Virus record (IMG/VR): IMGVR_UViG_3300023181_000032
Span: 1 to 58,860 of that record
DNA: 58,860 nt
Strand: one strand, 5' to 3'
From: a virus
Taxonomy: Duplodnaviria > Caudoviricetes
Made by a program: the position numbers and the translations under genes. Numbering within the stretch: position 1 is the first letter of the stretch; every line of letters starts with the position of its first letter. The notes under the pieces are model-generated. The model was given only the letters and a program-made list of their open reading frames with translations. It searched no databases and was not told where the DNA came from. This document shows positions 762 to 58,791 of this stretch, piece after piece.

Positions 762-1853
762 TCAGGCCGCGGGAATGGCGTCGTGAAACACATCCATCTG
801 CGCGGCGCCGTCCAGCCAGGCAGCGTCAATACGCGCTCTGGCCATCGCCGCATAATCCGGATTCAGCTCGCAAATGATCGACCTCCGCCCTTCCTGCATC
901 GAAACGAGCGATGTGGTACCGGCACCTCCGAACGGGTCGAGCACAATGCTGCCGCGCGGTGCGCCCGCCAAAATGCAGGGGCGGATAAGGTCAGGCGGGA
1001 AGGTGGCGAAGTGGGCGCCCTTGAATCCTTGAGTCGGCACAGTCCAGACGCTTCGCTTGTTGCGGGTGGCAACATCCCACTCGCTTTCAGCTCTGTCAGG
1101 CCGGTGTGTACCCTTCGACTGCCCGGGAATGGCCTGCTCACGCTTTGAGTCGTCACGCTGGAAGCTGTCACGTTTTGAGCGCCCGCCGCCAACCGCTTTC
1201 ATCATCCCGTTCGTTTTGCCGGGCACGCGGTCGCTGCCGACCTGGCCTTCAACATCCTGAGCCCATCGAGCGAGGCTTGATTCGGCGGCCGGCTCGCGGA
1301 TGGCTTGCATATCACAGTGGTAGCTTCGGGACTTGCTGAGCAGGAAAATGTATTCGTGGGCTTTCGTACAGCGGTCGCGCGTAGATTCGGGCATCGGGTT
1401 TGGCTTGTTCCAGATGATGTCCTGACGCAAATACCAGCCGTCGTCCTGCAGGGCGAACGCGAGGCGCCAAGGCATGCCCATCAGGTCTTTGTGCTTCAGC
1501 CCCGCAGGCGCAGAACGCCAGCCTGTCGCTTCGCCCTTGCCCTGCCATGCCCCGTCGCCGCGCTCCGCCATGAATGAGCCTCCACCGCCGCGACCTCCGG
1601 AAGCATATGTGTCACCCATGTTTACCCAGACCGTGCCGTCGTCGCGGAGTACTCGACGCACTTCGCGGAAGACGGCCACCAATCGGCCGATGAATTTGGC
1701 GGGAGTTTCTTCGAGGCCGATCTGGCCTTCTACGCCATAGTCGCGCAGCCCAAAGTAGGGCGGACTAGTCACGCAGGTGTGAACTGACTTATCCGGTAGC
1801 GTCCGCATCATTTCGATGCAGTCGCCGACCAGTATCTGGTGAAGCTGGCTCAT
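762..1853 (-). CDS. DNA methyltransferase (N6-adenine/N4-cytosine, beta class)
   Basis: GDC..., catalytic VTSPPY, HFATFP and SAM-binding VLDPFGGAGTT motifs. Start could be 1865. Confidence 0.92.
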   Translation of the reverse strand: MSQLHQILVGDCIEMMRTLPDKSVHTCVTSPPYFGLRDYGVEGQIGLEETPAKFIGRLVAVFREVRRVLRDDGTVWVNMGDTYASGGRGGGGSFMAERGDGAWQGKGEATGWRSAPAGLKHKDLMGMPWRLAFALQDDGWYLRQDIIWNKPNPMPESTRDRCTKAHEYIFLLSKSRSYHCDMQAIREPAAESSLARWAQDVEGQVGSDRVPGKTNGMMKAVGGGRSKRDSFQRDDSKREQAIPGQSKGTHRPDRAESEWDVATRNKRSVWTVPTQGFKGAHFATFPPDLIRPCILAGAPRGSIVLDPFGGAGTTSLVSMQEGRRSIICELNPDYAAMARARIDAAWLDGAAQMDVFHDAIPAA

Positions 1854-1954
1854 GCAGTTCTCCATGCAGGCGCCTCCCTCCGAATGGACGGTGGCGAATA
1901 GGTTAGTGGTGGGCTATACGTGTTGACCGGCATAGGGCCGGGTCAAGGAGACAG

Positions 1955-3590: not shown

Positions 3591-4453
3591 GCCGACTCCT
3601 GCATCGGCATGAGCTCGGCTTTGCGCTTGTCCTTCGCGGCGATCACTCGAGTGATCAGGTCATCAAACCCAAGCGCAATTGCTTTGGCGGCATTGAACGC
3701 TGACTGGAGCGCAGCCATATCAGAGGCGGCGGCGATGTCAGCAATCGCATCAACAAGCAGATCCTTAGCTCGGTCCTCAGGGCTTACGCCTGAGTTCAGC
3801 CAGCCCAGCAGCTTGCGTCCGGTTTCTTCACTGACTAGCTCGGGTGCCGCAAAGATCTTTGTCCGATCCTTGCTGGCGAGAGCCGTGTGCCCGTCGTGAG
3901 TAAGATCGAGCACCACGGTGAACTCGTAATCAGTTCCGTCTCGCTGCTCCGACTTCATGCCCAGCTTGAGGATCTTCTTGCCCTCACCCTGGACTGTCTC
4001 TGTCTTGCTGCGCATGGTGCAGATGACGTGCAGTGAGCTGGTCAGAATTTTGTTGGTCAACTGCCGGTGGCGTGGCGTTGTTTCGTTCCACGCCGCCCAG
4101 GTGTTTCCTCGGAATTTCTGGTGGGCCAGAGCTTCGTTTGATTCGAGACAGCCGCCAGGGCCAGTCCATTCGTGCGAGTAGCTGTCGACGATCAGCACGT
4201 TGTAGCCGGAAGCTTCGGCGGCGGTTATTGCCTCGATGTAGCGTTCAGGCGAGAAGGGTGGTTGTAGTTCGAGCACATCGAAGTCGGCGATGTCCGAATA
4301 CAGCGACGCGCTGCCTTGCTCGGTGTCGATCACCGCGATACGACCACCAAGACCTTTTGCCATGAGCAACGCAGAATAGGTTTTGCCTGAGCCTGATGGA
4401 CCTGCAAGTGCCAGCCTTAGCTTGGCCTGCTTGCGTTCAGCTTTCTTGAACAT
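3587..4453 (-). CDS. Sak4-like AAA ATPase / single-strand annealing recombinase
   Basis: Walker A GPSGSGKT, IAVIDTE, LIVDSYSHEW, YEFTVVLDL, ASKDRT. ATG at 4453 has a GAGG RBS. Confidence 0.85.
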   Translation of the reverse strand: MFKKAERKQAKLRLALAGPSGSGKTYSALLMAKGLGGRIAVIDTEQGSASLYSDIADFDVLELQPPFSPERYIEAITAAEASGYNVLIVDSYSHEWTGPGGCLESNEALAHQKFRGNTWAAWNETTPRHRQLTNKILTSSLHVICTMRSKTETVQGEGKKILKLGMKSEQRDGTDYEFTVVLDLTHDGHTALASKDRTKIFAAPELVSEETGRKLLGWLNSGVSPEDRAKDLLVDAIADIAAASDMAALQSAFNAAKAIALGFDDLITRVIAAKDKRKAELMPMQESA

Positions 4454-4463
4454 GGGAGTTGCC

Positions 4464-4604
4464 TCAATTGTGGCTGTCAAATTCCCGCTGAATCTTGCGG
4501 GCTTCGTCTTCGTACTCAGCGCGTTCGTTGCCGGAGAATTTCTCAGGCACGAACTCGCCGACTTGGGCCCAGTCGAGGTGGGCGGTCATTCGTGGGGTGC
4601 TCAT
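4464..4604 (-). CDS. Small hypothetical protein (46 aa)
   Basis: MSTPRMTAHLDWAQVGEF...; fills the gap between two operon genes; below the ORF-track cutoff. Confidence 0.55.
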   Translation of the reverse strand: MSTPRMTAHLDWAQVGEFVPEKFSGNERAEYEDEARKIQREFDSHN

Positions 4605-4611
4605 GGCGGGC

Positions 4612-5775
4612 TCAGTAGGTGAGGGTGATTGCGGGGATTTTTCGCTGAACGATCAGCGTGATTGCCTGCTTGGCGCACTCAGCAGTCATTCCGCCGGCCA
4701 CGAATGCCTCAAGCGCCGCCCGGTTGATCTTTCCCCGGTGCGCTTGGTCTGCCTCGCGCTGTGCAGCCTGGCGCAGTATCTCGTCAGCTGCGGCATCTGC
4801 CCGCGCGATCTCGTCCAGCCTGGCCTGCTCAACTGCAGCCGCCTGACGCTGTTCGGCTGCAGCACGCTCACGCTCGGCTTGTTGCTCCGCTGCAATGCGA
4901 TTGGCCTCGGCCTGCTCGGCAGCGCGGGCGGCTTGCTCGGCCTGCAACTGAAGCTGCAACCGTTGGCGTTCTGATTCGGCTCCGGCATCGCGAACTGCCT
5001 GATCTGCCGCACGCTGCGCTTCTGCTGCTTGGTCAATCAGCGCCTGCTCACGCGCTGCGGCCGCTTTGCGGTCTGCCTCGGCCTGGGCTGCGGCCTGACG
5101 TTGGGCTTCCTCTACAGCAGCGCGCGCTATGGCGTCATCACGCTCTTTCTGTTCGCGCTCGGCCTTCTCGGCATTGAACTGAGCAATGGCCGCCAGTTCC
5201 GCTTCGTGCTTTGTACGCGTAGCCAGGGCGGTCTTAATCTTGGTGACGGCCTGGTCTTTCGCGCGAGCCGCCTCCGTTTCGAACTCTTCCCACTCCTGGC
5301 TGATCACGACCGCTTCGGCTGCTTCCAAAAGCAGAGTCAGCGACTCAGCGGTGCGATCATCCAGGCTGGCATACAGCGTATTGATGGCTGCGATTGCTTC
5401 GTTGTGAGCATCAACGCGGGCATCTTCCGCAGCCTGCCAGTCGTCCAGCGGCTTGCGCACCTCTTTCTGCCACGATTCCAGCGTGTCCCAAACGCGCTTG
5501 CGTTCGGCGTCGATCTTCTTCGGAATCTCTTTCTGCTCGGCCGACAGCTGTTTGCCGACAGCTTCGAGCGCCGTTTTGGATTTTGCGATGCTGTGCGCCA
5601 TCGAGGCATATGCATCACGGCCTTTCTTGCTGCTGAGGTCAGGGAGGATCTTCTGGAACTCGTCGACCTTGGCGCGCACCTGCTGCAACCATGGCTCCAA
5701 GCCGTTGGCCGTGCTGAACACCGTCAGCGCTGTTTCTTTGGGCGGGACGGTGGCTAATTCTGTTTGTGCGGACAT
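4612..5775 (-). CDS. Long coiled-coil phage protein of the recombination module
   Basis: Ala/Glu/Gln/Arg-rich coiled coil; ATG at 5775 with GAGG RBS. Confidence 0.8.
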   Translation of the reverse strand: MSAQTELATVPPKETALTVFSTANGLEPWLQQVRAKVDEFQKILPDLSSKKGRDAYASMAHSIAKSKTALEAVGKQLSAEQKEIPKKIDAERKRVWDTLESWQKEVRKPLDDWQAAEDARVDAHNEAIAAINTLYASLDDRTAESLTLLLEAAEAVVISQEWEEFETEAARAKDQAVTKIKTALATRTKHEAELAAIAQFNAEKAEREQKERDDAIARAAVEEAQRQAAAQAEADRKAAAAREQALIDQAAEAQRAADQAVRDAGAESERQRLQLQLQAEQAARAAEQAEANRIAAEQQAERERAAAEQRQAAAVEQARLDEIARADAAADEILRQAAQREADQAHRGKINRAALEAFVAGGMTAECAKQAITLIVQRKIPAITLTY

Positions 5776-9423: not shown

Positions 9424-10152
9424 TCACGCCCTGGGCGCGCGCCTCACTGTGGACCACCAAAAGACTCGACCAAGCATAATGACCTCATCGCGATACTGTT
9501 CGGCCGTCATCAGCTCGTCTGGAAACTCGTCTGAGTTCTCGCTGCGAATCCTCACAGCCCCCGCGGGCATCCGATGAAGGTACTTCACCCTGAGCATGCC
9601 GCCATGGTTGAAGGCATATATCTCACCATCAATGATCGACGTGCTTGCCCTGTCGAACCCTATGGAGGCGCCATCAAGGATAAGTCGTTCCATGCTCTTG
9701 CCGTTTAGCCGGGCACATGCAGCGCTCTTACAGTCCACTCCAGCAGCTTTAAGGGTTGAACTGCTGAACCGCAATTTTCGGTCAGCGACTTCCACTACTT
9801 CTGTCATTCCATTACCACCAGCGAACTCCACTTCGTCGTAGTAAGGGACTTCACAGTCGTCCTCGTCAAGCGGATCGCCCTCATCCCATACAGATAGGTC
9901 GCCGATAAGTTCCGCGTTTGAGTCTCTATTGCGTGATGGCTTTTCGGCAGCCGGGAACGGATAGGCCACGCCCAAGGGCGGCAAGCCTACCTCGTCAAGG
10001 ATTCTGGAGATCATTTCAAGAGTCGGCTCGCGGCGCTCGTTCAACCAGTGCCCAATCGCGCCCTGAGTCACGCCCAGGCGTTCGGCCAGCTTGTCCTGAG
10101 TGAGCCCCGTTTCTTTCATCCTGGCCTTTGCCAGCTCGTTCCATTTTTTCAT
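9424..10152 (-). CDS. cI: CI-like repressor (HTH-XRE + S24 autopeptidase)
   Basis: HTH TQDKLAERLGVTQGAIGHW, AG.G cleavage region, GKSME Ser motif, RVKYL Lys motif; divergent from cro. Start 10152 or 10170. Confidence 0.92.
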   Translation of the reverse strand: MKKWNELAKARMKETGLTQDKLAERLGVTQGAIGHWLNERREPTLEMISRILDEVGLPPLGVAYPFPAAEKPSRNRDSNAELIGDLSVWDEGDPLDEDDCEVPYYDEVEFAGGNGMTEVVEVADRKLRFSSSTLKAAGVDCKSAACARLNGKSMERLILDGASIGFDRASTSIIDGEIYAFNHGGMLRVKYLHRMPAGAVRIRSENSDEFPDELMTAEQYRDEVIMLGRVFWWSTVRRAPRA

Positions 10153-10161
10153 GCTGTAGAT

Positions 10162-10237
10162 ATTACGCATTGTATTATCCCGCTCAAGATACATAGCGTA
10201 TTGGTGGCTTGCGCTATACCAGTACAAAACGTATTAT
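10162..10237. promoter_or_regulatory. OR region: three operators and PR
   Basis: TACR-N3-YGTA palindromes at 10162-10176, 10188-10202 and 10221-10235. PR is TTGCGC(10209)-N17-TATTAT(10232). Confidence 0.8.
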
Positions 10238-44491: not shown

Positions 44492-44519
44492 TTGCTGCGA
44501 TGCATCAGTCACTTATCCT
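44492..44519 (+). promoter_or_regulatory. CAGTCAC-type promoter variant
   Basis: TTGCTG-cgatgcatCAGTCACT-TATCCT. Confidence 0.55.
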
Positions 44520-44547
44520 TGGATTCAGATTAAGAGGAGTCGTGACG

Positions 44548-44736
44548 ATGGGATTGCCTAAATATGACGATGAGCTGGTCGAGCTGGTGAGCGAGCGAGT
44601 TCTGCAGAAGCTAGCTGACAAGCACGAAAGAGCTAGAGAGGCGAGAGACGCTTTGGCAGCGTTTATCTCCGAACAGATGCTCGCAATTCAGTCAGCAGGC
44701 TCACCGACTTCTCAACCGCCAGATCCGGCGAAATAG
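44548..44736 (+). CDS. Small hypothetical protein
   Basis: GAGGAG RBS; MGLPKYDDELV... Confidence 0.55.
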   Translation: MGLPKYDDELVELVSERVLQKLADKHERAREARDALAAFISEQMLAIQSAGSPTSQPPDPAK

Positions 44737-44920
44737 ACGCTCCCATGACCGCCTCTAGTCGAAGCTGAGCGTCGGCGAGCCTGAAATCTAACTCATCCTT
44801 GTCATGATGCGTTTTTATCAGCTCATGGAGCACGGTCGACTGAGCGGTGATTTGGGCCTGAATATCCATTATGAGGCGGGTGAACAGTTCGAGCTGCGGG
44901 CATTGGTCTTCGCTTGTCAT
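44663..44920 (-). CDS. Small hypothetical protein
   Basis: MTSEDQ...; downstream of the XRE regulator. Confidence 0.5.
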   Translation of the reverse strand: MTSEDQCPQLELFTRLIMDIQAQITAQSTVLHELIKTHHDKDELDFRLADAQLRLEAVMGASISPDLAVEKSVSLLTELRASVRR

Positions 44921-45015
44921 GGTTTCTTCCCTGATAATTGCAAAGTGCTCAGTTGTCACCATGATGGTGATAACTCGATTCAGTTATGGTCATCAACACC
45001 ACGACTGCCCACGCT

Positions 45016-45456
45016 CTAGGATTTGCTCTTCCCGCCTAGCAATTCAAGCAGCTTTTCATAAGCCCCTGGAATCTCCGCCTCAAGCTGGGCCATGAGGTCA
45101 GGGCTTTTGTCCATGCGGTCCTTCATTCCGGCAGCGATCAACTGATTTACCGCCTCATCAAACGTAATGCCTTTCTCTTCAGCATAGCCTTCGATTTTCT
45201 TGGTCTCATTCCCCGTCAGCATCAGCGTGATTTCGTTGCTTTCGTCATCATCACTCCTATCGCCAGACAAGTCCTCGGGCTTAACTCCCAGCGCATCAGC
45301 CAGCTTGAGCAAAACCGCAAGCCGTGGTTTGGCTTTAGATGCCTCGTAGCGCGATATCTGTGACCAGGTTATTCCGACTACATCCGCCAGCTCTCGCTGC
45401 GTCATGTTCGCCGATGCCCGCGCGCGGGCTAGCCGCTTCCCGAATAGGTCATCCAT
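45016..45456 (-). CDS. XRE-HTH regulator with RHH-like C-terminus (Mnt position of an immI-like region)
   Basis: MTQRELADVVGITWSQISRYE...LADALGV; divergent from arc. Confidence 0.85.
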   Translation of the reverse strand: MDDLFGKRLARARASANMTQRELADVVGITWSQISRYEASKAKPRLAVLLKLADALGVKPEDLSGDRSDDDESNEITLMLTGNETKKIEGYAEEKGITFDEAVNQLIAAGMKDRMDKSPDLMAQLEAEIPGAYEKLLELLGGKSKS

Positions 45457-45518
45457 CGTATCTGTCCAAAGTTGCTTGAGGTCGTAAAAATACACCGTAA
45501 CGCTTGAAGCTGCAAAAT

Positions 45519-45561
45519 AAGCAACAAGTTGCTTTACATAGGCAACAAACTGCAATAAAGT
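45519..45561 (+). promoter_or_regulatory. Pant-like promoter and operator
   Basis: Palindrome AAGCAAC-aa-GTTGCTT (45519-45534) overlapping TTTACA(45533)-N17-TAAAGT(45556). Confidence 0.6.
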
Positions 45562-45589
45562 CATTCCACAAACAACGGAGCGCCCTGTC

Positions 45590-45751
45590 ATGGCAGAAGA
45601 GAAGAAAGTCGTAGGTGTTCGCCTACTGGCACTCATGCAAGAAAACCTAGCTAAAAAAGCGAAGCAAAACGGTCGCAGCCTCAGCGGCGAGATTGTATTT
45701 CGTTTGCGCAAGTCTCTGGAGCAAGAAGATGGGCAGATCAAGCAGGCATGA
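45590..45751 (+). CDS. arc: Arc-family repressor (53 aa; not in ORF track)
   Basis: MAEEKKVVGVRL...AKQNGRSLSGEIVFRLRKSL; GGAG RBS. Confidence 0.85.
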   Translation: MAEEKKVVGVRLLALMQENLAKKAKQNGRSLSGEIVFRLRKSLEQEDGQIKQA

Positions 45752-45820
45752 AAAAGCCCCAAGCGCTGTAACGCAAGGGGCTTCAGGTAACGTAGTCAAC
45801 TATCAGGAAAACGACGTCAT
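45751..45820 (-). ncRNA. Putative Sar-like antisense RNA to ant
   Basis: Minus-strand extended -10 TGcTAGAAT (45834-45826); terminator-like hairpin aagcccc...ggggctt with an A-run at 45751-45755; spans the ant RBS. Confidence 0.45.
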
Positions 45821-46694
45821 GCAAAATTCTAGCACAGCTTTGACACCTGAAAATATACCGGCAATCTCACACGCCGGTCGGCCAGTCGTGACCACTGCTT
45901 TGCTGGCAAGGCTGTACGGTACCGATGACAACAATCTTATTAAGAACTTCCAACGCAACGCTGGTCGATTCGTCGCTGGCAAGCACTTCCACAAGCTGGA
46001 AGGCGCGGCTTTAAAGGCTCTTAAGGACTACATGACTGATAGTCAGGTAGTCCAAATATCGAAAAACACCCGTCAAATGATCCTTTGGACGGAGCGCGGT
46101 GCTGCTCGCCACGCCAAGATGCTGGATACCGAACAAGCCTGGGAAATGTTCGAAAAACTCGAAGATAGCTATTTCGGTAAATCGCCCGTTCTTGCTATTG
46201 AGCATAAGCCTGAAGCTCTAACACCAGCCCATCAGCGCCACATTCTTAACCGCGTTGCTGAACTGGCGGGAATGGACCGTAAAAAATATCCGGTCGTCTG
46301 GCGCGGTATCAAAGATCATTTCAAGGTCGGCAGTTACAAAGACATCCCTGATAGCCAGTATCCTGCGGTCTGCGAGTTCATGCTTTGCAAGCCAATAGAC
46401 GTTGCTGTGCCGACAGCTCGCATCATCGAGCAGGCGCACGGAATTTATCTTGATCAGCATGAAACGCATTGTCTCTACCTGCTGATGTCGCGATTTTGGA
46501 CGATGCATCAGCACAAACTGAACATGCTGAACGCTGCCAGAGCGCTAGGCTCTGACTCCCTGATGAGCATGTTTGATCAGCTGCATGACGGGCATATTTC
46601 GTTTGCTGCTCTTGATAAACGGCGCGAAGAACTTTATGCCGCCTACACTTCTACCGGCTGCCAGGGCGGGTATGCATCGAGGAAATCCGCATGA
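45819..46694 (+). CDS. ant: Antirepressor (ORF6N + ORF6C domains)
   Basis: VVTTALLARLYGT...NFQRN..RF..GKHF...LWTERGAARHAKML; IKDHFKVGSYKDI. Confidence 0.88.
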   Translation: MQNSSTALTPENIPAISHAGRPVVTTALLARLYGTDDNNLIKNFQRNAGRFVAGKHFHKLEGAALKALKDYMTDSQVVQISKNTRQMILWTERGAARHAKMLDTEQAWEMFEKLEDSYFGKSPVLAIEHKPEALTPAHQRHILNRVAELAGMDRKKYPVVWRGIKDHFKVGSYKDIPDSQYPAVCEFMLCKPIDVAVPTARIIEQAHGIYLDQHETHCLYLLMSRFWTMHQHKLNMLNAARALGSDSLMSMFDQLHDGHISFAALDKRREELYAAYTSTGCQGGYASRKSA

Positions 46695-47266
46695 GCCTCG
46701 ACCTCCTGACAATACGCATCACCGGCACCTCGCCGCTCATGATGCACAGCGACCGTCTGGCTAACCCGCTCAACCCGGCGACCAAAGCTCACAAAGAGCT
46801 GACCGGCAAGCGGAAGAAGACTGATGACGATCATCTGGCGATCGCCCGATCTGAATTTGTGGCTGGCGCCTATTACGACGAGAAGGCCGGTTTTTTTGTG
46901 CCAGGCCAGAATTTCGACGCAACTTTCCTTGCCGGAGCAAAACTGCAGAAGATGGGCACCCACTGGAAGCGAGGAGCCGTTGTGATGACGGATCGGGCAA
47001 AGCTTGTCTTTGACGGGCCATCTACCCCGGGCGAGTTGTGGGAGGATCAGCGATTCGTCGACTGTCGAGGCGTGAAAGTGGGGCAAGCCAAGATCATGCG
47101 TTACCGTCCAATCTTTCTCGATTGGGCAACCGAGATTGAGGTGGCAATCAATTCCGACGTACTCGACATCAATGAGGCAAAGAAAGCCATCACTGATGCA
47201 GGCAAGCTCATCGGCGTGTGTGAATACCGCCCCCGTTTTGGTCGATTCGAGGTTGCATATGTCTGA
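46691..47266 (+). CDS. Stand-alone RAMP/Cas7-like RNA-binding protein (Vipr-like)
   Basis: N-terminal strand IRITGTSPLMMH, internal F.VPG.N, and C-terminal G-rich loop AG..IGVCEYRPRFGRFEV; ATGA-coupled to ant; upstream of the pentamer array. Confidence 0.75.
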   Translation: MSLDLLTIRITGTSPLMMHSDRLANPLNPATKAHKELTGKRKKTDDDHLAIARSEFVAGAYYDEKAGFFVPGQNFDATFLAGAKLQKMGTHWKRGAVVMTDRAKLVFDGPSTPGELWEDQRFVDCRGVKVGQAKIMRYRPIFLDWATEIEVAINSDVLDINEAKKAITDAGKLIGVCEYRPRFGRFEVAYV

Positions 47267-47714
47267 CGTAACGAAATACCCGTCCTACAAGCAAGCTGTT
47301 GACGACTTTCTCTCTGAGTTCAAATACGGCGACATGGTCAGCCACCAGTGGCTGGAAAATCGCTTCGGCATGCCGTCGCTACTCGACACCAAGACAATGA
47401 CTTCAGATCAGTTTCGCGATCGGCAATTCGAGTGGCTGGCCAACGTAGAGTCGTTTAAGAACGAATTGCTTCGCAGCCACCAAGTCTGCCTACAGTCAGT
47501 GCGTGGGCGTGGTTATCGCTGGGTGCCGCCGCATGAACAGACCGGCATCGCGGTCGAGGAATTTGATCGAAATGTCAGAAAGGTTTTCCGAAACACGGGT
47601 CAGAAACTCCGCAATCTGCGGATTACTGAGTTGACCGATGATCAGCGCCGGGAGAATCTGGACACCGTAGCGAAGTTCTCAGCGCTACGCGGTATGACCA
47701 AAGGACTGCATTAA
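47259..47714 (+). CDS. Accessory protein with winged-helix-like motif
   Basis: MSDVTKYP..., 151 aa, overlaps the RAMP stop; LQSVRGRGYRWV resembles a wHTH wing. Confidence 0.7.
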   Translation: MSDVTKYPSYKQAVDDFLSEFKYGDMVSHQWLENRFGMPSLLDTKTMTSDQFRDRQFEWLANVESFKNELLRSHQVCLQSVRGRGYRWVPPHEQTGIAVEEFDRNVRKVFRNTGQKLRNLRITELTDDQRRENLDTVAKFSALRGMTKGLH

Positions 47715-47715
47715 C

Positions 47716-48065
47716 CAGCGTAGAGCGCATCCGAAGGGGTGCGCTGTGCGGCGCGAAAGCATCATGCGGTGCGGCATGTTTCGGTGGGCTGAGATCCGGC
47801 ATGGCTGGGCCTGGCGTGGCAAGTCATGGGCTGAAAACAGCGTTCAGCCACTTCCCCCGAGGTGGCTGAGCGATGTGAAGGCATCGCGGGGCGTGGCAGG
47901 CTTAGGTGCGCTGTGGCGTGGCAAGTCTCGGTCCGGCATGGGCTGATAACAGCGTACTGGGTTTTCTTGCGAGAACCCAGTGCGGTGCGGAAGCATCGTT
48001 TGGTCTGCCATGTTGCGGCGTGATATGCCGGGGCTAGGTACGCTTCGATATGGGCTGTAAACAGC
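47716..48065 (+). ncRNA. Array of three structured guide-like RNAs with NN-G(G)Y pentamer tracts (vrRNA-like)
   Basis: Units start at 47719, 47841 and 47953. Each has a 14-bp hairpin, a GCATC tetraloop hairpin, 12/10/10 NN-GNY pentamers, then ATGG-GCTG-NNAA-CAGC. Confidence 0.85.
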
Positions 48066-48100
48066 ACAAAATACCCCGCCTCGGTGGGGGTTTTTTGTGC
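48064..48100 (+). terminator. Terminator closing the array
   Basis: gcacaaaataccccgcc-tc-ggtgggggttttttgtgc. Confidence 0.8.
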
Positions 48101-48113
48101 CTGCAATTACCCC

Positions 48114-48141
48114 TTCCTAAGCAGAGCCAGTCACATACGCT
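48114..48141 (+). promoter_or_regulatory. CAGTCACA-type promoter (fibre operon)
   Basis: TTCCTA-agcagagcCAGTCACA-TACGCT. Confidence 0.65.
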
Positions 48142-48165
48142 AACTGGAAATCGCAGGAGATTTCC

Positions 48166-48771
48166 ATGGGCGGCAATACTTTCGACATCGAAATTCAGAG
48201 AGGTCGAACTTTTGAGTTTGCGTATCGCCGTGCAGATATGCAGATCAACTACGCGCCTATTTCCGGAATGCCGAGCACGACACCTGTACGGCTGACTGCG
48301 CCAAATCACGGCATCCCGGATGGCTGGCGTGTTGGCGTAGAAAAAGTAATTCGTCCAGAAGAGCTCAACACCTCAAGCGGCGACTATTACATCGCCACAT
48401 TTATCGACGCCAATACCATCGAGCTGAATGGCGTACGAACAGATGACTGGAGGCCATTCGTTACCAGTGGCGCGCTGTACTTCAATCGCCCATTCGACCT
48501 AACCGGTTGCTCGGCGAGAATGCAGGTTAGGCGCACCCTCGACGGGCCAGTCCTGCTTAGCCTCAGCTCTGACCCTCAAGCAGTAAGGGATGGTGAAATC
48601 GAGCTGGATGTATCCCTGTCTTCGATAATTGTCCGTCTGTCCGCAGCAGCTACAGCTGCCATTACCTGGACGCGGGCCGTATACGACATAGAGCTAATCA
48701 CGGCTGAGGGGCATGTTCAGTCCGTTACGCCTGTCAGTGCCGTGTCAATCCTGCCGGAGGTGACACGATGA
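48166..48771 (+). CDS. Virion/tail accessory protein
   Basis: IQRGRTF, DLTGCSARMQVR and YDIEL motifs (BppU-N-like). Confidence 0.65.
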   Translation: MGGNTFDIEIQRGRTFEFAYRRADMQINYAPISGMPSTTPVRLTAPNHGIPDGWRVGVEKVIRPEELNTSSGDYYIATFIDANTIELNGVRTDDWRPFVTSGALYFNRPFDLTGCSARMQVRRTLDGPVLLSLSSDPQAVRDGEIELDVSLSSIIVRLSAAATAAITWTRAVYDIELITAEGHVQSVTPVSAVSILPEVTR

Positions 48772-49241
48772 ATTCGGCTTTCTCCATCCAGGGTGCCGAA
48801 GGATTCTGCGGGTCCTGCCGGAATGAATCTGGCGCATTCACCATCATGGTCGGACAGCGAGGTGCGCAGGGCAGACCAGGCACAGATGCTGGCGATGATG
48901 TTCAGACGGTCATCCGCACGGCCGGCGAGACTGTTAGCGCGCTGCGGATCGTCTTCGAAAGCCAGCTGCTAGCCCACCCTGTCAATCCAGCCACCAGTTC
49001 GGTATTCCAGGCTCTCGGCCTAACTCTCACCGCAGGCTCTACCGGATCAGCGCTGACCATCCAGACGCAGGGCTTCGTCGACGACGCGGGCTGGTCGTGG
49101 GCGGAAGGTCATGTCTGGTGCGGACCAAACGGCACTCTCACACAAACCCCGCCGACCTCCGGCTGGGATTTCATCATCGGCTTCGCCACCAGCGCGACAC
49201 GCCTTTACATCGACCTCAATGAGCCGGTTTTACTGGCGTAG
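48768..49241 (+). CDS. Virion accessory protein
   Basis: Short G-X-Y stretch; G.LTQTPP motif. Confidence 0.6.
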   Translation: MNSAFSIQGAEGFCGSCRNESGAFTIMVGQRGAQGRPGTDAGDDVQTVIRTAGETVSALRIVFESQLLAHPVNPATSSVFQALGLTLTAGSTGSALTIQTQGFVDDAGWSWAEGHVWCGPNGTLTQTPPTSGWDFIIGFATSATRLYIDLNEPVLLA

Positions 49242-49250
49242 GAGCATATC

Positions 49251-49766
49251 GTGGTAGACAAAGTTCTTCGCCGGGTAGCCGGGCAGACAATCCAGTACAC
49301 GCCAGTCGTCGCCTCTGCAGGCGCTGCGGACGGTGGCAAATTTGTTGCGCTCGGGCCGGACGGCAAGCTCGACTCGTCCGTCTACAACGCAGGCACTGGC
49401 GTCAGCACCCGCCCGATTGTGGCAAGCGAGGCGATCGGTGCGGGCAAGTTCGTCAACGAATACCTGAATGCCGGCGCGCTTAACATCCGTCTGGCTGACA
49501 ACTCGAACGGACGCCCGGCGCATGGTTTCGTTATCGCAGCGGTTGCCTCTGCGGGTACAGGCGCCGTGTACGACCTGGATGCAGTGAACAGCGGTCTTTC
49601 CGGTCTGACTATCGGCAGCGACTATTTCCTCGGCACTGCAGGCGGCGTAATAACCCCCGCGCTGGACGCCACCACTGCCGCTACAGGCGCTATCGACCAG
49701 AAGCTGGGAAAAGCCCTCAGCGTCACTGAGTTGAAGACTCAGGACTTCGACTACGTGGTGTTGTAA
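49251..49766 (+). CDS. Virion accessory protein
   Basis: ASEAIGAG.FVN; GLTIGSDYFL. Confidence 0.6.
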   Translation: MVDKVLRRVAGQTIQYTPVVASAGAADGGKFVALGPDGKLDSSVYNAGTGVSTRPIVASEAIGAGKFVNEYLNAGALNIRLADNSNGRPAHGFVIAAVASAGTGAVYDLDAVNSGLSGLTIGSDYFLGTAGGVITPALDATTAATGAIDQKLGKALSVTELKTQDFDYVVL

Positions 49767-51031
49767 TGGTCGGCCGCCTGCCGGTCGTTCGCAAGGACGG
49801 TCAGAACGTCCAGATTCCGCCGGGGGATGCACTCCGGCTGCGTGGCGACTTGGTATTCGCTCCACGGGTATCGGTGAACGTTACGGAGCTGACCGACCTG
49901 AGCGCCGTAGCCTCCAATCTGGTGACGCTCGGCTCCACCGGTACTGTTTCAAGCTTCGGCACGGGGATCATTGGCGACGTCAAGTATGTTCTTGCGGCGC
50001 TTGACGGGATCATAATCGTTCGAGACGGCAATCAGATCGAAGTGCCGAGCAAGGCGAGCATCACGCTCGCGGCAGGAGATTTTTTCATTGCCGAGTGCAT
50101 CGCGGCCGGCTCATGGCGCGTACGCGACTTCCAGCGCGCCGACGGAAAGGCGTTAGCGGCAACGCCCACTCCCGACCCGACGAAACTTCCGTTGGCTGGC
50201 GGAAAAATGACGGGCGCAATCAACGAAGCCGTCCCAGTAAGCATGGCGCTCGGTGTCGAGATCGCCAATGGCGTACAAATCACCAATGCCGCGTCGAACA
50301 CCGTATTCATCACAGACACCGGAACGCTGACCTTTTTGGGTAGCGGCACGCCCGGCACCACCCGCGAGGTCGAATTCACAACGTCGGTAACGCTGCAGAA
50401 CACTTCCCGCATCATTCTTCCAGGTCTCGCCAACATCACGACGCAGGCCGGCGACACGGCCAAGTTCCGTAACGTGGGCGAGGGCAACATCTGGAAGTGT
50501 GTCTGGTATGCGCGTCAGGATGGAACGCCGGTCATTACGCCATCCGACTCTAACAAGGTAAGCACTTCGGCAGTCGGCGCAGCAAACGGCGTTGCACCTC
50601 TCGGCGCTGACAGCAAGGTCCCAGCTGCATACCTGCCAACCGGCAACGTCTTCCGCATCGAAAACATCGCGGCCACTTCCGTTGGCCAGACTTCGTTCGC
50701 CATACCGAACGGCTACACCGCCGGCGCAATTATCCCTTTCTTCAAAGGCCCCGTTCTCGCCCCGGCTGACTACACGGCAACCGATGGCGCAAACGTTGTG
50801 CTTGCAGTCGGTGCTGATGCGATAGGGGATGTTCTGACAGTCGTCGTCCTCGGCGCACTCAGGGCTCAAGACGACGCACTTCTCCAGTACACGGTCGCAG
50901 GTCTTCCCGCAGCATCCGCAAACCTCGCCAAGCAACTCTGGTGCACGAACATGGCCGGTGGAGCAGGGGTGGTAGTAAGCAACGGCACGAACTGGGTACG
51001 TGTCGCCGACAACACGATAGTGACGGTGTGA
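49766..51031 (+). CDS. Tail fibre-like protein
   Basis: LPLAGGKMTG, GVAPLGADSKVP and internal duplicated domains. Confidence 0.7.
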   Translation: MVGRLPVVRKDGQNVQIPPGDALRLRGDLVFAPRVSVNVTELTDLSAVASNLVTLGSTGTVSSFGTGIIGDVKYVLAALDGIIIVRDGNQIEVPSKASITLAAGDFFIAECIAAGSWRVRDFQRADGKALAATPTPDPTKLPLAGGKMTGAINEAVPVSMALGVEIANGVQITNAASNTVFITDTGTLTFLGSGTPGTTREVEFTTSVTLQNTSRIILPGLANITTQAGDTAKFRNVGEGNIWKCVWYARQDGTPVITPSDSNKVSTSAVGAANGVAPLGADSKVPAAYLPTGNVFRIENIAATSVGQTSFAIPNGYTAGAIIPFFKGPVLAPADYTATDGANVVLAVGADAIGDVLTVVVLGALRAQDDALLQYTVAGLPAASANLAKQLWCTNMAGGAGVVVSNGTNWVRVADNTIVTV

Positions 51032-51032
51032 T

Positions 51033-51743
51033 ATGGCCTATAACGTAAACGACGCGAGGATTGTCGGGCTCAAGCTCAGTGTTTTGGCTGACGGCGTGAC
51101 GGTTGGTCTTTCGCCGGGCGCTGCGTACATTCCGAACCAAGGCCGCGCGCTTTCGCAGAACGACATGAGCTTGGTGATCTCCGGCGTGACGAGCGCATGG
51201 CGGCACTTCTACATCGCCAACGATGACGGCGTGCTTAAGTTCGAGGCCTCGGCCACCGCGCCAGCCGATCCGTACCAGGGCACGGCGCGCACGAAATCGA
51301 ATGACCCGACGCGCCGATATCTGGGCTCGCTCTACTTCAACGCAAGCGGCGTGACGCTGGCCTTCCTGCACAGTCAGGTCGGCGACCGGGCGAACCGGAT
51401 CAGCTTCGTCCCACCGGGCGGCGCTGCAATCTCCCAGTCGCGCCTGCTCAACGTCGCAACGGGCACGGCCCCAACTCTGGTTGACGCATCCACCGTCGTT
51501 CCGATGACCTGCCGCCTGATGTACACGCTGATCGACAACACATCGACCAGCGATGCCTACCTCGGCACTCCGGACAACGGAACCCTGTCCACGACCAACT
51601 TCCTTCTGTTCGTCAAAGCGAATCAGGCAGGCCAGTACGACGTCGAGGTCAACGGCAACCAGCTGCTCAACTACTTCCTCAACGGGCTCATTACCCTCGG
51701 CGGCCTGACGATTCGGGTTCGCGGCTATCTCTTCGACAGGTGA
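51033..51743 (+). CDS. Tail fibre/spike-associated protein
   Basis: Beta-rich; RRYLGS motif. Confidence 0.6.
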   Translation: MAYNVNDARIVGLKLSVLADGVTVGLSPGAAYIPNQGRALSQNDMSLVISGVTSAWRHFYIANDDGVLKFEASATAPADPYQGTARTKSNDPTRRYLGSLYFNASGVTLAFLHSQVGDRANRISFVPPGGAAISQSRLLNVATGTAPTLVDASTVVPMTCRLMYTLIDNTSTSDAYLGTPDNGTLSTTNFLLFVKANQAGQYDVEVNGNQLLNYFLNGLITLGGLTIRVRGYLFDR

Positions 51744-51746
51744 TTT

Positions 51747-52484
51747 ATGACGGCTAACAGAGACCTTGGAAAGCTGGTCCCGCTGCCGAGTGTGGCGGGG
51801 CAGTTTGTATGGGATCAGGTTACATCTGCTTGGGTGCAGGTTACGAAGGCGATGGTCGGTTTACCGCTGGCGGATAACACGGCCGACAACGCAAAGCCGG
51901 TAAGCGGCCCGCAACTGACAGCGCTAAACCTCAAAGCTCCCATTGCTAGCCCGGCGTTGACTGGTGTCGTTTCGGTAGGTCCAGATTCCCCGTTGGCGAT
52001 ATCTGGAGGGCTTGGCGGTTCAATCAAGCACAACAAAACTGCAGCAGGCGGGCAGTTTGATATCGATGATGTGCCATTCACAAACACCGATCCAGCGCAA
52101 TTCAGATTTCACCGAAACACCAGCACTAGCGGCAGCGTGACCGTCACCTATTATCGGGGCAACGCATCAACAAACGCCGATCACATCTTTATTTCCGCTG
52201 GAACAAACGCCGCGACTACCTCCGAAGCCAGACTTTGTATAGGGGCTGGCAAGGCTGTTGTAGGCGCAGGGGCTGTGGATGCTACTGCAACTCTGTTGGT
52301 GTCCGGCGCATTAAAGTCTTCGGGGCCTGCATTTTTAGGGCAATACACCCTGACCACCCTGCCTTCCGCATCAACTTTCAGCGGCTACTACATCACTGTG
52401 ACGAACGCGACTGGCGGGGCGAAGCTCTGCTATTCCAACGGCACCAACTGGCTCATCGCCAACACCACAACGATAGTGAGCTGA
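51747..52484 (+). CDS. Tail fibre-like protein
   Basis: VGL..ADNTAD..KPVS...LKAPIASPALTG fibre motif. Confidence 0.7.
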   Translation: MTANRDLGKLVPLPSVAGQFVWDQVTSAWVQVTKAMVGLPLADNTADNAKPVSGPQLTALNLKAPIASPALTGVVSVGPDSPLAISGGLGGSIKHNKTAAGGQFDIDDVPFTNTDPAQFRFHRNTSTSGSVTVTYYRGNASTNADHIFISAGTNAATTSEARLCIGAGKAVVGAGAVDATATLLVSGALKSSGPAFLGQYTLTTLPSASTFSGYYITVTNATGGAKLCYSNGTNWLIANTTTIVS

Positions 52485-55805: not shown

Positions 55806-56915
55806 TCAAGGGTTTACGAGCTTTAGCGCCACCCTCCCTTGAGACACTGGAACATCAGCGTGAACTGAGCGTGAACTTGCCCTTTCACGCAACCCGTCCA
55901 GAACCCCGACTGCATCCCTTACCCGAGCCGGCGCCAAGTGCGCATATCGCTCGGTCATGGTGATCGTCGAGTGCCCCAGCAAATCCCGAACTTCTGCCAG
56001 CGCAACCCCCGCGCTGATCAAATGTGCCGCGCACGTATGACGTAGGTCGTGGATCACAAAATCCTTGATGCCCGCCCGTTCGCAGGCCACCTCGAATCCT
56101 TTTCTGATGCACGCCACCCGCTCGCCACTACTGCGTGAAAATACCCAGGGTGATGCCGGGCAAGTTTCCGCCCGATAGCCCGCCCGTCCTTTCAGCGCGT
56201 CCAGCGCCCCCTCGTTCAGCGGAATGCTCCGCCGCTTCCCTGCCTTCGTGTGAACCCCCTCCAGATAGATCAGCTTGTTGACCAGATCCACGCGGCGCCA
56301 TTCAAGGCCCAGCATTTCCTCTTTGCGGCAGCCGGTATTGACCGCCAAGTGGATGAAGTCATCCAGCAAGGCTCCGTTGCGCTGCATCCGCGCCGTGCGG
56401 CAGAGCAGCTCCACTTCAGCGCGCGTCAACCACCTGACCCGACCTTCCGGCTCCTTCATCGTGCGCCCCTTTACCGGGTTGGGCAGCGCCCATTCAAATT
56501 CCACGTTGCACCAGTTGATGGCTGCCGACAGCGCCGCCAGTTCCCGGTTGATGGTGGCCGCCGACAGCCCGGCCTCCATGCGACGGGTGGTGTATTCCCG
56601 AATGTGCTTGCCGGCTAGGTCATTCATCACCAGACCTGTAAAATGCTCGCCAAGCGGCTTTGCTCGATACAGGGTCGTTTTGTAACTGCGCTGTTGCTGG
56701 CTGGCGTGGCGCAGGTACGGCAACATCACTTCCAAGAAGGTCCGGGGCGGATTTACGCCCCATTCCTTTTCCTTCCAGGCATCGGCTTTCGCCTGTTGCT
56801 CTATTGCTTTCGCCGCGGCGTAGTCGCTTGTGCCAGAAGACCGGCGAATTCTTTTTCCATCTGCGCTTGTGACAAAGATCCACCAATACGGTGAGTCTTC
56901 TCTTTTATAGGGCAT
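55806..56915 (-). CDS. int: Tyrosine integrase
   Basis: TGCRKEE (R), TKAG (K), HDLRHT, LLGHS, TERYAH. Confidence 0.96.
   Translation of the reverse strand: MPYKREDSPYWWIFVTSADGKRIRRSSGTSDYAAAKAIEQQAKADAWKEKEWGVNPPRTFLEVMLPYLRHASQQQRSYKTTLYRAKPLGEHFTGLVMNDLAGKHIREYTTRRMEAGLSAATINRELAALSAAINWCNVEFEWALPNPVKGRTMKEPEGRVRWLTRAEVELLCRTARMQRNGALLDDFIHLAVNTGCRKEEMLGLEWRRVDLVNKLIYLEGVHTKAGKRRSIPLNEGALDALKGRAGYRAETCPASPWVFSRSSGERVACIRKGFEVACERAGIKDFVIHDLRHTCAAHLISAGVALAEVRDLLGHSTITMTERYAHLAPARVRDAVGVLDGLRERASSRSVHADVPVSQGRVALKLVNP
55857..55877 (+). repeat. Probable integrase arm-type sites
   Basis: AGCGTGAACT x2 (55857 and 55868); related gcgtgtac/agcgtgac sites left of the core (about 55619-55688). 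Confidence 0.6.
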
Positions 56916-57565: not shown

Positions 57566-58297
57566 TTAATCCCAGTCGAAACTCATTTTGGGATTGGCAG
57601 GAGGAAAGCATTCGAGCGTCGATAGCTTGAGCAGCGTGAAGTGCCCACCCATCCATGCGGCCGTATCGATGTGGACGACGTTGCCCAGCGTGGCGGGCTG
57701 CCTGAGTGGGGTATGACCTACGACCACAGCTCGCACACCCGTTACATGAGTGAGGTCACTGTCGTTGATCCTGCGCCGGGACCATTGAGCCATTGCCTGC
57801 ACATGATCAGCCTCAGCCGGGCCGCCGCTAGATAGCGCCCAGGTGAACTCGGTCCAGCTTGGATAAGGGCAATCGGCGTGAACAATACCTACCACGCCGC
57901 CGTCTGTTTCAACCTCGATGGCGATGGGAAGGTCTGCAAACATCGCTGCATAGTTCTGCTGCTCATCCCAGTTGAGCGCGAGAAACCAAGCCCCGCCGTT
58001 TTGCAGATACATGCCACCGTCGGCCCGCGAGTTGCGAGCATGGTTGATCGCCATTTCTTCATGATTACCCTGCACCGCGTGGAACCATGGCTTGTTGAGC
58101 CACAGAAACGAATCAACTGATTCCGGTCCTCTGTCGACCAAATCCCCAACACTGAACAAGCGGTCAATGGCGGGGTTGAATCCGATGACGTTGAGCGCCG
58201 ACTGGAGCTTGCTGAAGTGGCCGTGAATATCGCCGACAACCCAGTCGGTGCCGGCCTTATTTATCGGGTAACGCTGAACCTTCGGTTTTCCAGGCAC
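57566..58297 (-). CDS. Ser/Thr protein phosphatase (lambda NinI-like metallophosphoesterase)
   Basis: GDIHG, GDLVDRG, GNHE, GHT, IDT motifs. Confidence 0.92.
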   Translation of the reverse strand: MPGKPKVQRYPINKAGTDWVVGDIHGHFSKLQSALNVIGFNPAIDRLFSVGDLVDRGPESVDSFLWLNKPWFHAVQGNHEEMAINHARNSRADGGMYLQNGGAWFLALNWDEQQNYAAMFADLPIAIEVETDGGVVGIVHADCPYPSWTEFTWALSSGGPAEADHVQAMAQWSRRRINDSDLTHVTGVRAVVVGHTPLRQPATLGNVVHIDTAAWMGGHFTLLKLSTLECFPPANPKMSFDWD

Positions 58298-58341
58298 GGA
58301 AATTCCTCGCCGCATACGCAGCAGGCAATAGGGATAGGGGT

Positions 58342-58791
58342 TTACTGTGGGTAGATATCTTCTAAAACCGCCCGAAGCTCTTTGCGCCACCAGAAGTTAT
58401 GGCGGCCTTCCGGTTTCTCGCCGAATACGCAGCCATTCAGCTCAGCTTGCCCGTCGAGGAACAGCCAGACTTCGCGCAGGCGCTCCGGCATAACGACCTT
58501 GCGCTGGGCGTGGCGGCAGAGCTTCGTGTCGTATGGCAGCGACTGAATGTCCATCCGAGCGACCAGCTCGCGCTCGCCGAACGCCTCAGGGTCGCCGAAC
58601 TTCGAGACGATTTCCGCCACCGGCTCATCCACCACTGCGCGGACATCCTCGGCAGGGGCGGCGCGGGAGGCGTTCCATGCCGACCACCAGTCGTGGACGC
58701 GTGGCTCATCGTAAAAACCATTCGTTTGCTCGGTTGTGAAGCCCCGTTGCACAACCCAAGCTTCAAATCCTTCCCTATTGGCGTCACTCAT
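58342..58791 (-). CDS. Hypothetical phage protein
   Basis: MSDANREGFEAW...AWNASRA. Confidence 0.65.
   Translation of the reverse strand: MSDANREGFEAWVVQRGFTTEQTNGFYDEPRVHDWWSAWNASRAAPAEDVRAVVDEPVAEIVSKFGDPEAFGERELVARMDIQSLPYDTKLCRHAQRKVVMPERLREVWLFLDGQAELNGCVFGEKPEGRHNFWWRKELRAVLEDIYPQ

Follow-up and report, generated by a model that had tools for sequence, protein, structure and literature searches.

What is encoded by the two small overlapping genes and the three-unit repeat array that lie between positions 46691 and 48100 of the virus record IMGVR_UViG_3300023181_000032 (Duplodnaviria; Caudoviricetes), and against what might the RNAs of this array be directed? The whole record, 58,860 bases rated 100% complete, was analysed here and is called the window. 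An earlier note, made from the letters of the sequence, had proposed a compact RNA-guided system at this place and had pointed, as an unverified likeness, to the recently reported VIPR systems. VIPR (Viral Interference Programmable Repeat) is described in three preprints of 2026 (bioRxiv 10.64898/2026.04.26.720920, 10.64898/2026.04.26.720927 and 10.64898/2026.10.15.759431), all of which are cited here from partial text.

We conclude, with a probability of roughly 0.93, that this temperate phage carries a type II VIPR system with all its parts, including three guide RNAs (vrRNAs) that would silence DNA targets by the skip rule of those preprints. The locus agrees with the definition of type II VIPR because its two proteins are homologous to Vipr and Vap1, the first has a predicted Cas7-like fold, and its vrRNAs consist of pentamers followed by a structured tail; it is a further case of the published type and not a new kind. 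Our own analysis supplies the homology of both proteins, the anatomy of the RNAs with its conservation, and the predicted targets. The filament, the reading of alternating constant GGY and variable NN bases, the 1-nucleotide (nt) skip rule and the silencing are taken from the preprints on the systems of phage SUSP1 and of a P. fulva prophage (10.64898/2026.04.26.720920; 10.64898/2026.04.26.720927). The elements of the cassette are as follows (SL, stem-loop).

46691-47266, plus strand: vipr, predicted minimal RAMP/Cas7-like guide-RNA-binding subunit (PDB 36pp_D; AlphaFold2/Foldseek; phrog_4652, E 1e-74)
47259-47714, plus strand: vap1-like gene, product winged-helix-like at the N terminus, then a long helical hairpin (BLASTP, model, Foldseek)
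47717-47871, plus strand: vrRNA1, with leader hairpin 47724-47745, SL3 47750-47763, 12-unit guide 47766-47825 and tail 47826-47871
47872-47983, plus strand: vrRNA2, with SL3 47872-47885, 10-unit guide 47888-47937, SL1 47938-47953 and SL2 47954-47983
47984-48096, plus strand: vrRNA3, with SL3 47984-47997, 10-unit guide 48000-48049, SL1 48050-48065 and terminator 48074-48096

The 191-residue protein is a Vipr homologue with a predicted Cas7-like fold

In a phmmer search of PDB sequences, the 191-residue protein matched chain 36pp_D, 'SUSP1 Vipr protein', with an E-value of 3e-47 over query residues 4-189, and the likeness to VIPR named in the earlier note was thereby borne out. Global alignment gave 83 identities to SUSP1 Vipr in 188 aligned residues (44%), and tblastn placed phiSUSP1 and SUSP2 at 43% identity. 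The Vipr family comprises 840 proteins at E ≤0.001; the nearest homologues include many Pseudomonas proteins at 80-87% identity (80-84% for the named Pseudomonas homologues listed), and the Vipr proteins of this clade are 70-96% identical. A Pfam scan returned no family for either the 191-residue or the 151-residue protein.

An AlphaFold2 model of the protein (predicted local distance difference test, pLDDT, 94.4) has the strand (E) and helix (H) order E3-12, H29-38, H45-59 ... E186-190. The PDB matches listed by Foldseek are nearly all Cas7-family RAMPs (type VII Cas7, Csm3, Cmr4 and Cas7-11), together with one Cas6; the best E-value is 3.5e-5, and the Cas7 matches have a probability of 1.00 and a template-modelling (TM) score of about 0.5 at sequence identities of 9-13%. 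The modelled fold is that of a Cas7/Csm3-like RAMP, as had been supposed from the sequence; a non-RRM fold, the outcome that the earlier note had named as speaking against its proposal, was not observed. The C-terminal G..RP.FGRF loop is kept, with G175, R180, G184, R185 and F186 invariant in an alignment of 23 sequences; H19, R41, R139 and R180 are likewise invariant in this alignment, which spans down to 32% identity, and the loop motif CEYRP is common to the whole close clade within it.

We then mapped onto the window protein the 14 residues of SUSP1 Vipr named in the cryo-EM preprint, which by its available text secure the DNA backbones and the constant G, G and pyrimidine of the guide (10.64898/2026.04.26.720927). 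Seven of the 14 are identical (H17>H19, K33>K35, R39>R41, K82>K84, G87>G89, R138>R139 and R179>R180) and two are conservative replacements (D177>E178 and W178>Y179). For T175 the letter given in the preprint clashes with the SUSP1 sequence, which has V at this position, as does the window. According to the same source, alanine mutants of D177, R138, K33 and K82 abolished silencing by SUSP1 Vipr (10.64898/2026.04.26.720927), and the counterparts of all four are kept or conservatively replaced here. The preprint further describes SUSP1 Vipr as binding with one protomer to each 5-nt unit, whose GGY the protein grips while NN is left free to pair (10.64898/2026.04.26.720927); the mode of RNA reading that had been proposed from the window sequence coincides with this and would, by analogy, apply to the window protein.

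The 151-residue protein is a Vap1 homologue

The second gene overlaps the first by 8 nt (ATATGTCTGACG), and its ATG start sits inside the listed open reading frame (ORF) 47136-47714; the two genes of 191 and 151 codons, both on the plus strand, had been read from the sequence as translationally coupled, and we confirmed this. By BLASTP, the 151-residue protein matched the product of the SUSP1 gene adjoining vipr with an E-value of 2e-14 at 23% identity. That SUSP1 gene is vap1, described in the available part of the discovery preprint as a predicted winged-helix-like DNA binder (10.64898/2026.04.26.720920). The protein is also 55% identical to the neighbour of vipr in Pseudomonas phage Medea1, and 87 of 107 related loci contain a Vap homologue, downstream of vipr in all 30 matches listed. 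Its structural model (pLDDT 90.4) shows an N-terminal helix/strand domain followed by two long helices; Foldseek matches were weak (E 0.036-0.3), all of them to winged-helix DNA-binding domains. We assign the ORF by homology to Vap1, which agrees with the winged helix-turn-helix (HTH) protein postulated in the earlier note.

Three predicted pentamer-coded RNAs follow directly behind the two genes

The stop codon of the vap gene (TAA) occupies 47712-47714 and the structured array begins two bases on. The 58,860-base window contains three mismatch-free copies of ATGGGCTGWWAACAGC and no more, at 47826, 47938 and 48050, an exact period of 112 nt, and an intrinsic terminator-like hairpin with a T-run lies at 48074-48096, so the three-unit array ending in a terminator was found as the earlier note had described it. 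We set the boundaries of the vrRNAs from the repeat anatomy, not from mapped RNA ends. In vrRNA1, an SL2-like hairpin precedes the unit, and the tail consists of AT-GGG plus SL1 (47826-47841) and of SL2 (47842-47871); in vrRNA3, the terminator replaces SL2.

Counting 39 pentamers in register, 13 upstream of and including each tail, we found G at position 3 in 36, G at position 4 in 26 and C or T at position 5 in 36, with the exceptions at positions 3 and 5 confined to the constant handle and tail units. All 32 guide units (12+10+10) therefore read NN-G-N-Y, with G at position 3 and a pyrimidine at position 5 in 32/32. The best-phase periodicity of G was equalled by 0, 4 and 4 of 10,000 shuffles for the three tracts. 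A detector of pentamer tracts reported exactly these three in the whole window, all on the plus strand, and 20 shuffled windows yielded nothing; neither this detector nor a search for the tail motif with up to three mismatches revealed a further vrRNA in the window.

The array does not qualify as class 1 CRISPR-Cas: it is made of pentamer guides and not of contiguous spacers, and no cas gene was among the 37 window ORFs, a subset of all, that were scanned against PHROGs. That scan likewise contained no cas1/cas2, Cas5/6/8/10 or nuclease, and an Rfam scan of 47500-48300, CRISPR repeats included, returned no credible family, the sole match being poplar-1 at E 0.67. The absence of cas1/cas2, nuclease and canonical CRISPR repeat that had been remarked on before thus holds within these searches. 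Two ORFs, of 114 residues (47762-48106, minus strand) and 66 residues (47746-47946, plus strand), overlie the array; they are by-products of the G-rich repeats, which automatic annotation could call as genes.

The locus and its RNA anatomy are conserved in relatives

We collected 106 related vipr loci, 26 from genomes and 80 from viral contigs. Pentamer tracts on the same strand lie beside vipr in 93 of the 106 and on the opposite strand in none, which answers the earlier note's question of whether such arrays adjoin the homologues. Among the 13 loci without a tract, three end right after vipr and two are spurious 26-residue matches. The variable positions of the relatives' units use all four bases; position 3 is G in 291 of 299 units and position 4 in 210 of 299. 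Because position 4 is G in only 210/299 of the relatives' units, the relaxed G-N-Y scaffold is, as judged from these sequences, a trait of the clade.

Successive guide tracts in this clade are separated by three stem-loops, of which SL1 (GCUG-NNAA-CAGC) does not vary. In SL2, a 13-bp hairpin, 13 pairs covary over the 39 distinct junctions compared; these pairs are canonical in 33-39 of the 39, through three to seven pair types each. SL3, directly 5' of the first guide unit, is a small hairpin, often with a GNRA-like loop, and reaches at least 5 bp in 35/39 junctions, as compared with a mean of 6.1 and a maximum of 12 in shuffles.

Some relatives (L061-L069) have uninterrupted tracts of 20-29 units, for example L064:4087-4231, in which 26/29 units are strict GGY, and L062:4087-4216. 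The available text of the discovery preprint gives 9-16 units per vrRNA (10.64898/2026.04.26.720920); the tracts beyond this range may be long guides or fused vrRNAs.

At least one guide is predicted to be aimed at a virion gene of sister phages

To predict targets we used the published rule, as given in the available text of its sources, in which each GGY becomes one wildcard, both strands are read, NN matches are counted and the threshold is 0.8 (10.64898/2026.04.26.720920; 10.64898/2026.10.15.759431). The guides were compared with 0.71 Mb of VIPR loci, with viral contigs, and with a set of 80 loci carrying a homologue of the gene that lies directly 3' of the array, which were fetched using the alignment of that gene. 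Two features of the window are needed here.

48166-48771, plus strand: virion-module gene, 201 residues, phrog_1084 (function not assigned by PHROG), directly 3' of the array
48123-48157, minus strand: the phage's own counterpart of the vrRNA1 site in the 5' untranslated region (5'UTR), 17/24, below 0.8

The clearest case was vrRNA3. It scored 19/22 in one related locus (L037) within the 0.71 Mb of VIPR loci; the maximum for 20 permuted guides there was 18. When the first nine NN units were searched as an exact gapped pattern of 18 bases, six viral contigs matched, each at the same antisense position close to the 3' end of a homologue (55-60% identity) of gene 48166-48771; one locus (L143-type allele) matches in all ten variable units, 20/20. 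The skipped bases, at which the targets vary among themselves, coincide with the wobble positions in the codons of ..D-V-Y-P-I-T-A-I-S-K.. Scores of at least 0.8 were found in 22/80 loci with the 201-residue gene, as against 0-3 for permuted guides.

The phage's own counterpart of this site, 48712-48740, scores 12/20 and reads ..H-V-Q-S-V-T-P-V-S-A.. By sequence comparison, the very site at which vrRNA3 matches the common allele of the family has diverged in the phage that encodes this guide. Over a slightly shifted span, the family consensus at the site is ..VYPITAISKV.. and this phage has ..VQSVTPVSAV..

The matches of vrRNA1 converge on the same gene at a different place. Of 17 exact matches of its 16-base gapped pattern, 11 lie on one antisense site ending 9 nt before the start codon of 48166-48771 homologues, and sister phages score 19-20/24 at this 5'UTR site. 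One contig (L121) matched vrRNA1 at 21/24 in a tail-fibre-like ORF; we took this to be probably chance, as it is a single, non-convergent match among six background hits. For vrRNA2, two 8-unit patterns gave 3 and 7 unrelated matches (16-18/22) in contigs of 33-55% G+C without similarity to the window, which we rejected, and its best score in the 0.71 Mb of VIPR loci, 17/22, was no better than that of permuted guides.

None of the three guides reaches 0.8 on the phage's own genome, where the best scores are 17/24 (vrRNA1), 14/20 and 14/20. Within the set of 80 sister loci, vipr lies within 4 kb of the 201-residue gene in only two, and most of the predicted victims are without VIPR at this locus, that is, within 4 kb of the gene. 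Together these results predict that a virion gene of sister phages is the target of at least one guide. The sister phage's allele of the downstream late gene would be silenced by vrRNA3 and, with less certainty, by vrRNA1, and the phage's own allele would escape. The use against competing phages that the earlier note had suggested fits these predicted targets.

Relatives carry guides that match this phage

We also searched in the opposite direction, with 188 distinct guides taken from relatives. Five match the window at 0.8 or more, where permuted guides give 0-5. Two independent guides, from L041 and L045, converge on one site.

46775-46809, plus strand: site in the phage's own vipr, codons 29-40, matched by the L041 guide at 22/24 and the L045 guide at 20/22

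At this site the bases skipped are the third positions of the codons. Guide matches of at least 0.85 number 210 in the 107 related loci taken together with the window cassette, compared with three for permuted guides; 99 of the 210 lie in the first 250 nt of vipr, from just the L041 and L045 guides and in 61 loci, and most of the others lie 2-3.5 kb downstream of the vipr start. This phage is itself a predicted target, at its vipr. Two of the 210 are self-matches, in L048 (+3459 from the vipr start) and L092 (-159), which could be self-targeting or chance.

The cassette stands at the end of a probable antirepressor operon in a temperate phage

The phage is temperate as judged from its genes, which by PHROG scan include an integrase (55806-56912, minus strand) and a CI-like repressor (9424-10224, minus strand) besides terminase, portal, major head protein and endolysin. 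The cassette is placed within the late/structural gene region, in the order HTH regulator (minus strand), promoter-like site, Arc-like ORF, antirepressor, 191-residue ORF, 151-residue ORF, array and terminator. The features upstream of vipr are:

45016-45456, minus strand: divergent HTH transcriptional regulator (best PHROG match to transcriptional regulator/repressor families at E 5e-17, over residues 64-219 of the longest ORF)
45533-45561, plus strand: sigma-70-like promoter candidate for an arc-ant-vipr-vap-vrRNA operon (consensus scan, 9/12 matches)
45590-45751, plus strand: Arc-like small DNA-binding protein (PHROG Arc-like repressor/regulator families, E 1e-7 to 4e-6)
45693-46694, plus strand: antirepressor with ORF6N/ORF6C domains (Pfam ORF6N, E 3.6e-16; PHROG anti-repressor families, E down to 7.7e-47)

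The longest ORF of the regulator extends to 45762, and because it would overlap arc its start is probably near 45456. The true start of the antirepressor is probably the ATG at 45819; its end shares an ATGA overlap with vipr, an arrangement of translational coupling.

This linkage recurs in relatives. In 93/104 related loci the vipr start coincides with, or closely follows, the end of an ORF on its strand, and 54 of 86 distinct upstream proteins have an antirepressor-type N-terminal domain (Bro-N, Phage_pRha, ORF6N, KilA-N, AntA, P22_AR_N or ANT), with a P22_AR_N-type antirepressor directly upstream of vipr in 14/86. The other 32, mostly short ORFs or from distant loci, comprise 31 without a Pfam match and one with a below-cutoff match to an unrelated family. 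Seven N-terminal domain families thus stand upstream of vipr (L004-L109) with the junction to vipr kept; it looks as if the antirepressor N-terminal domain is swapped while the vipr junction stays. A literature search, to which supplements are external, found no paper joining 'vrRNA' with 'antirepressor' or 'anti-repressor'.

From this arrangement we infer that VIPR would be made with the antirepressor early in infection and would act against resident sister prophages. A wider proposal, which we put forward tentatively and regard as somewhat doubtful, is that VIPR in temperate phages of Pseudomonas and relatives is the distal payload of an immI-like antirepressor operon that runs from Arc and an antirepressor with an exchangeable N-terminal domain through vipr and vap1 to the vrRNAs and faces a divergent HTH repressor. 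The antirepressor would lift the repression of a resident sister prophage while, simultaneously, codon-phased guides shut the sister's allele of a late virion gene, and particles would be made by the incoming phage alone, its own allele having diverged at the guide site; sisters would aim guides back at vipr. The immI region of Salmonella phage P22 (mnt, arc, ant) has a divergent repressor gene facing an arc-antirepressor operon among late/tail genes. To our knowledge it holds no vipr, vap or vrRNAs. The likeness to the window is one of layout alone (a divergent regulator, arc and ant in late genes), and the roles of the regulators here are those that we infer.

The product of the 201-residue gene has no Pfam family, and its Atlas clusters all consist of phage hypothetical proteins; we considered it as a relative of the 'tail assembly protein I' of Medea1, and the comparison showed no relatedness. 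Elsewhere in the window, in the early region, are two ordinary phage accessory genes, a DNA methyltransferase (762-1865, minus strand; phrog_67, E 7e-78) and a NinI-like Ser/Thr phosphatase (57566-58390, minus strand; phrog_246, E 3e-74).

How the system would work, and what else the locus might be

By the reading that we favour, a type II VIPR system directed at sister phages, the vrRNAs would be co-transcribed with arc, the antirepressor gene, vipr and vap1 from a promoter opposite the divergent HTH regulator gene, with termination at 48074-48096. Along each vrRNA, Vipr protomers would polymerise at intervals of five bases, gripping the constant G(G)Y and leaving the variable pair of every unit exposed. 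These exposed NN bases would recognise, by pairing, a double-stranded DNA in which the same dinucleotides recur with a single skipped base between them. Transcription of DNA bound in this way would be shut down, and the winged-helix-like Vap1 would assist.

Several observations weigh against this reading. The second G of GGY is present in only 19/32 guide units and, in vrRNA3, in 4/10. Two G-contacting residues of SUSP1 Vipr, D177 and W178, are changed here (D>E and W>Y), and another 4 of the 14 named residues differ (E71>Q73, M72>N74, K88>T90 and C173>I174). Among the 80 sister loci, vrRNA1 reaches 0.8 in only 2 and 0.75 in 13 (null 0), and vrRNA2 reaches 0.8 in none; the exact 10-unit pattern of vrRNA2 had no match in viral contigs, and the 13-unit pattern of vrRNA1, allowing up to three mismatches, was found in 0/3 and then 0/401 genomes of the genus of the Pseudomonas genome that holds the related locus L004. 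The promoter match is weak, with four sites seen by the consensus scan as against 2.2 expected in the region, and among public runs no sequencing run recorded as RNA holds the locus; a single DNA run does, which may be that of the source sample.

Some of these points would also be expected of a decaying or inactive locus, in which the guides are drifting relics that the protein no longer reads: the second G is absent from 13/32 guide units, vrRNA2 is without a target in the searches run, vrRNA1 has targets only near threshold, and the residues corresponding to the G-contacting D177 and W178 are E and Y. Yet both ORFs are intact and translationally coupled, the CEYRP variant belongs to the whole close clade, and the looseness of position 4 is shared by the relatives and is a clade trait. 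Moreover, vrRNA3, which has the most degenerate scaffold, is the guide with a perfect natural target (20/20), and the pairing of SL2 and SL3 is kept through compensatory changes. We regard decay as the least probable of the alternatives considered here, and very improbable in itself.

By another reading, partial matches would let the vrRNAs adjust the phage's own late gene 48166-48771, for instance by delaying expression of this virion gene, and rivals would not be attacked. In its favour, the best minus-strand match of vrRNA1 on its own genome is to the 5'UTR of the gene directly downstream (17/24 at 48123). This score is at noise level, however, since two unrelated places on the plus strand also give 17; sister phages score higher at the same 5'UTR site, the phage's own vrRNA3 site gives 12/20 as against 20/20 for the sister allele, and the available text of the discovery preprint reports no self-targets of 0.8 or more for its systems (10.64898/2026.04.26.720920). 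Self-regulation is very unlikely. We give a similarly small chance to the idea that the array serves mainly as a decoy, loading and misdirecting the Vipr of other VIPR-positive phages in the manner of satellite-borne solo vrRNAs. Solo vrRNAs that redirect a rival's VIPR are described in a preprint cited here from partial text (10.64898/2026.10.15.759431), and the 70-96% identity of Vipr proteins within the clade makes cross-loading plausible; against it, an intact vipr and vap1 stand in one apparent operon with the array, and with vipr within 4 kb in just 2 of the 80 loci that share the 201-residue gene there would be little Vipr to hijack.

VIPR is a recently described form of RNA-guided DNA recognition, proposed to be older than CRISPR, and its basic discovery is already in the preprints. 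The present locus, from an uncultured temperate phage, adds a clean case in which no part is missing and a natural target can be read off the sequence. What is added to the published picture is a natural target with a contrast of self and non-self, the stem-loop architecture of a clade with a relaxed G-N-Y scaffold, and the link to a probable antirepressor operon. The sister allele and the phage's own allele form a ready-made pair of target and non-target for allele discrimination, and the coupling of vipr to an antirepressor suggests when the system would be switched on and ties RNA-guided silencing to the superinfection and immunity circuitry of temperate phages.

Comparison with known systems

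The type II VIPR of SUSP1 (PDB 36pp) shares with the window full-length homology of Vipr, a vap1 homologue after vipr, three vrRNAs downstream of vap, GGY/NN pentamers followed by a structured 3' tail, and targets, in the window predicted ones, that obey the 1-nt skip rule and have codon wobble positions at the skipped bases. SUSP1 differs in being a phage of ~90 kb, in an extra upstream vrRNA and in the sequence of its tail, for which the VIPR preprints, as far as their available text goes, report a pseudoknot. The tail in the window is GGGCUG-NNAA-CAGC plus a 13-bp hairpin, with a small hairpin before each guide tract; the second G of GGY is relaxed (19/32), and the G-loop reads CEYRP, compared with GDWRP in SUSP1. 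In the window, the cassette stands behind an antirepressor gene in a temperate phage and the predicted targets are sister phages, whereas that of SUSP1 is a satellite.

Closer in setting is the P. fulva prophage VIPR, a type II system given in the available part of the discovery preprint with vrRNA1-3, vipr and vap1 (10.64898/2026.04.26.720920). It shares with the window the gene set and also the host group, as judged from the nearest homologues (Pseudomonas). The same source defines the P. fulva clade by more than 90% identity to P. fulva Vipr and reports that its guides target resident prophages and other VIPR systems and that the targets are mainly lysis-lysogeny regulators (10.64898/2026.04.26.720920). 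Both assignable guides of the window point instead at a virion-module gene, a comparison made by description and not by sequence.

The closest cultured phage is Pseudomonas phage Medea1 (MW862109), with a Vipr 81.6% identical and a Vap 55% identical to those of the window. It has the same order of HTH regulator (reverse), Arc, Rha-type antirepressor, vipr, vap and vrRNA, and in both phages the cassette lies within the tail gene region. Medea1 differs in having one full vrRNA plus a remnant, then an extra gene, and in the lack of the 201-residue gene. Over 44500-52000 of the window, only the vipr-vap part matches Medea1 at the DNA level (68.9%); the rest is unrelated, and the cassette therefore moves between phage types. 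In GenBank, the vrRNA region of Medea1 (L001, 4028-4240) is unannotated and vipr and vap are annotated as hypothetical proteins; the stretch 4241-4633, after the cut-off second vrRNA unit, holds a small gene of lower G+C and looks like a later insertion.

The more distant likeness is to the Cas7 backbone subunits of CRISPR-Cas (Csm3 of type III-A, Cas7 of type VII and Cas7-11), which have the same fold as modelled for the window Vipr at a TM score of about 0.5 and 9-13% identity. They also share the principle, set out in the available text of the cryo-EM preprint, that each subunit covers a set number of guide bases and that a thumb interrupts the duplex (10.64898/2026.04.26.720927). Class 1 CRISPR differs in its repeat-spacer array and contiguous guide, which is read in steps of 6 nt with five pairing bases, compared with steps of 5 nt with two in VIPR.

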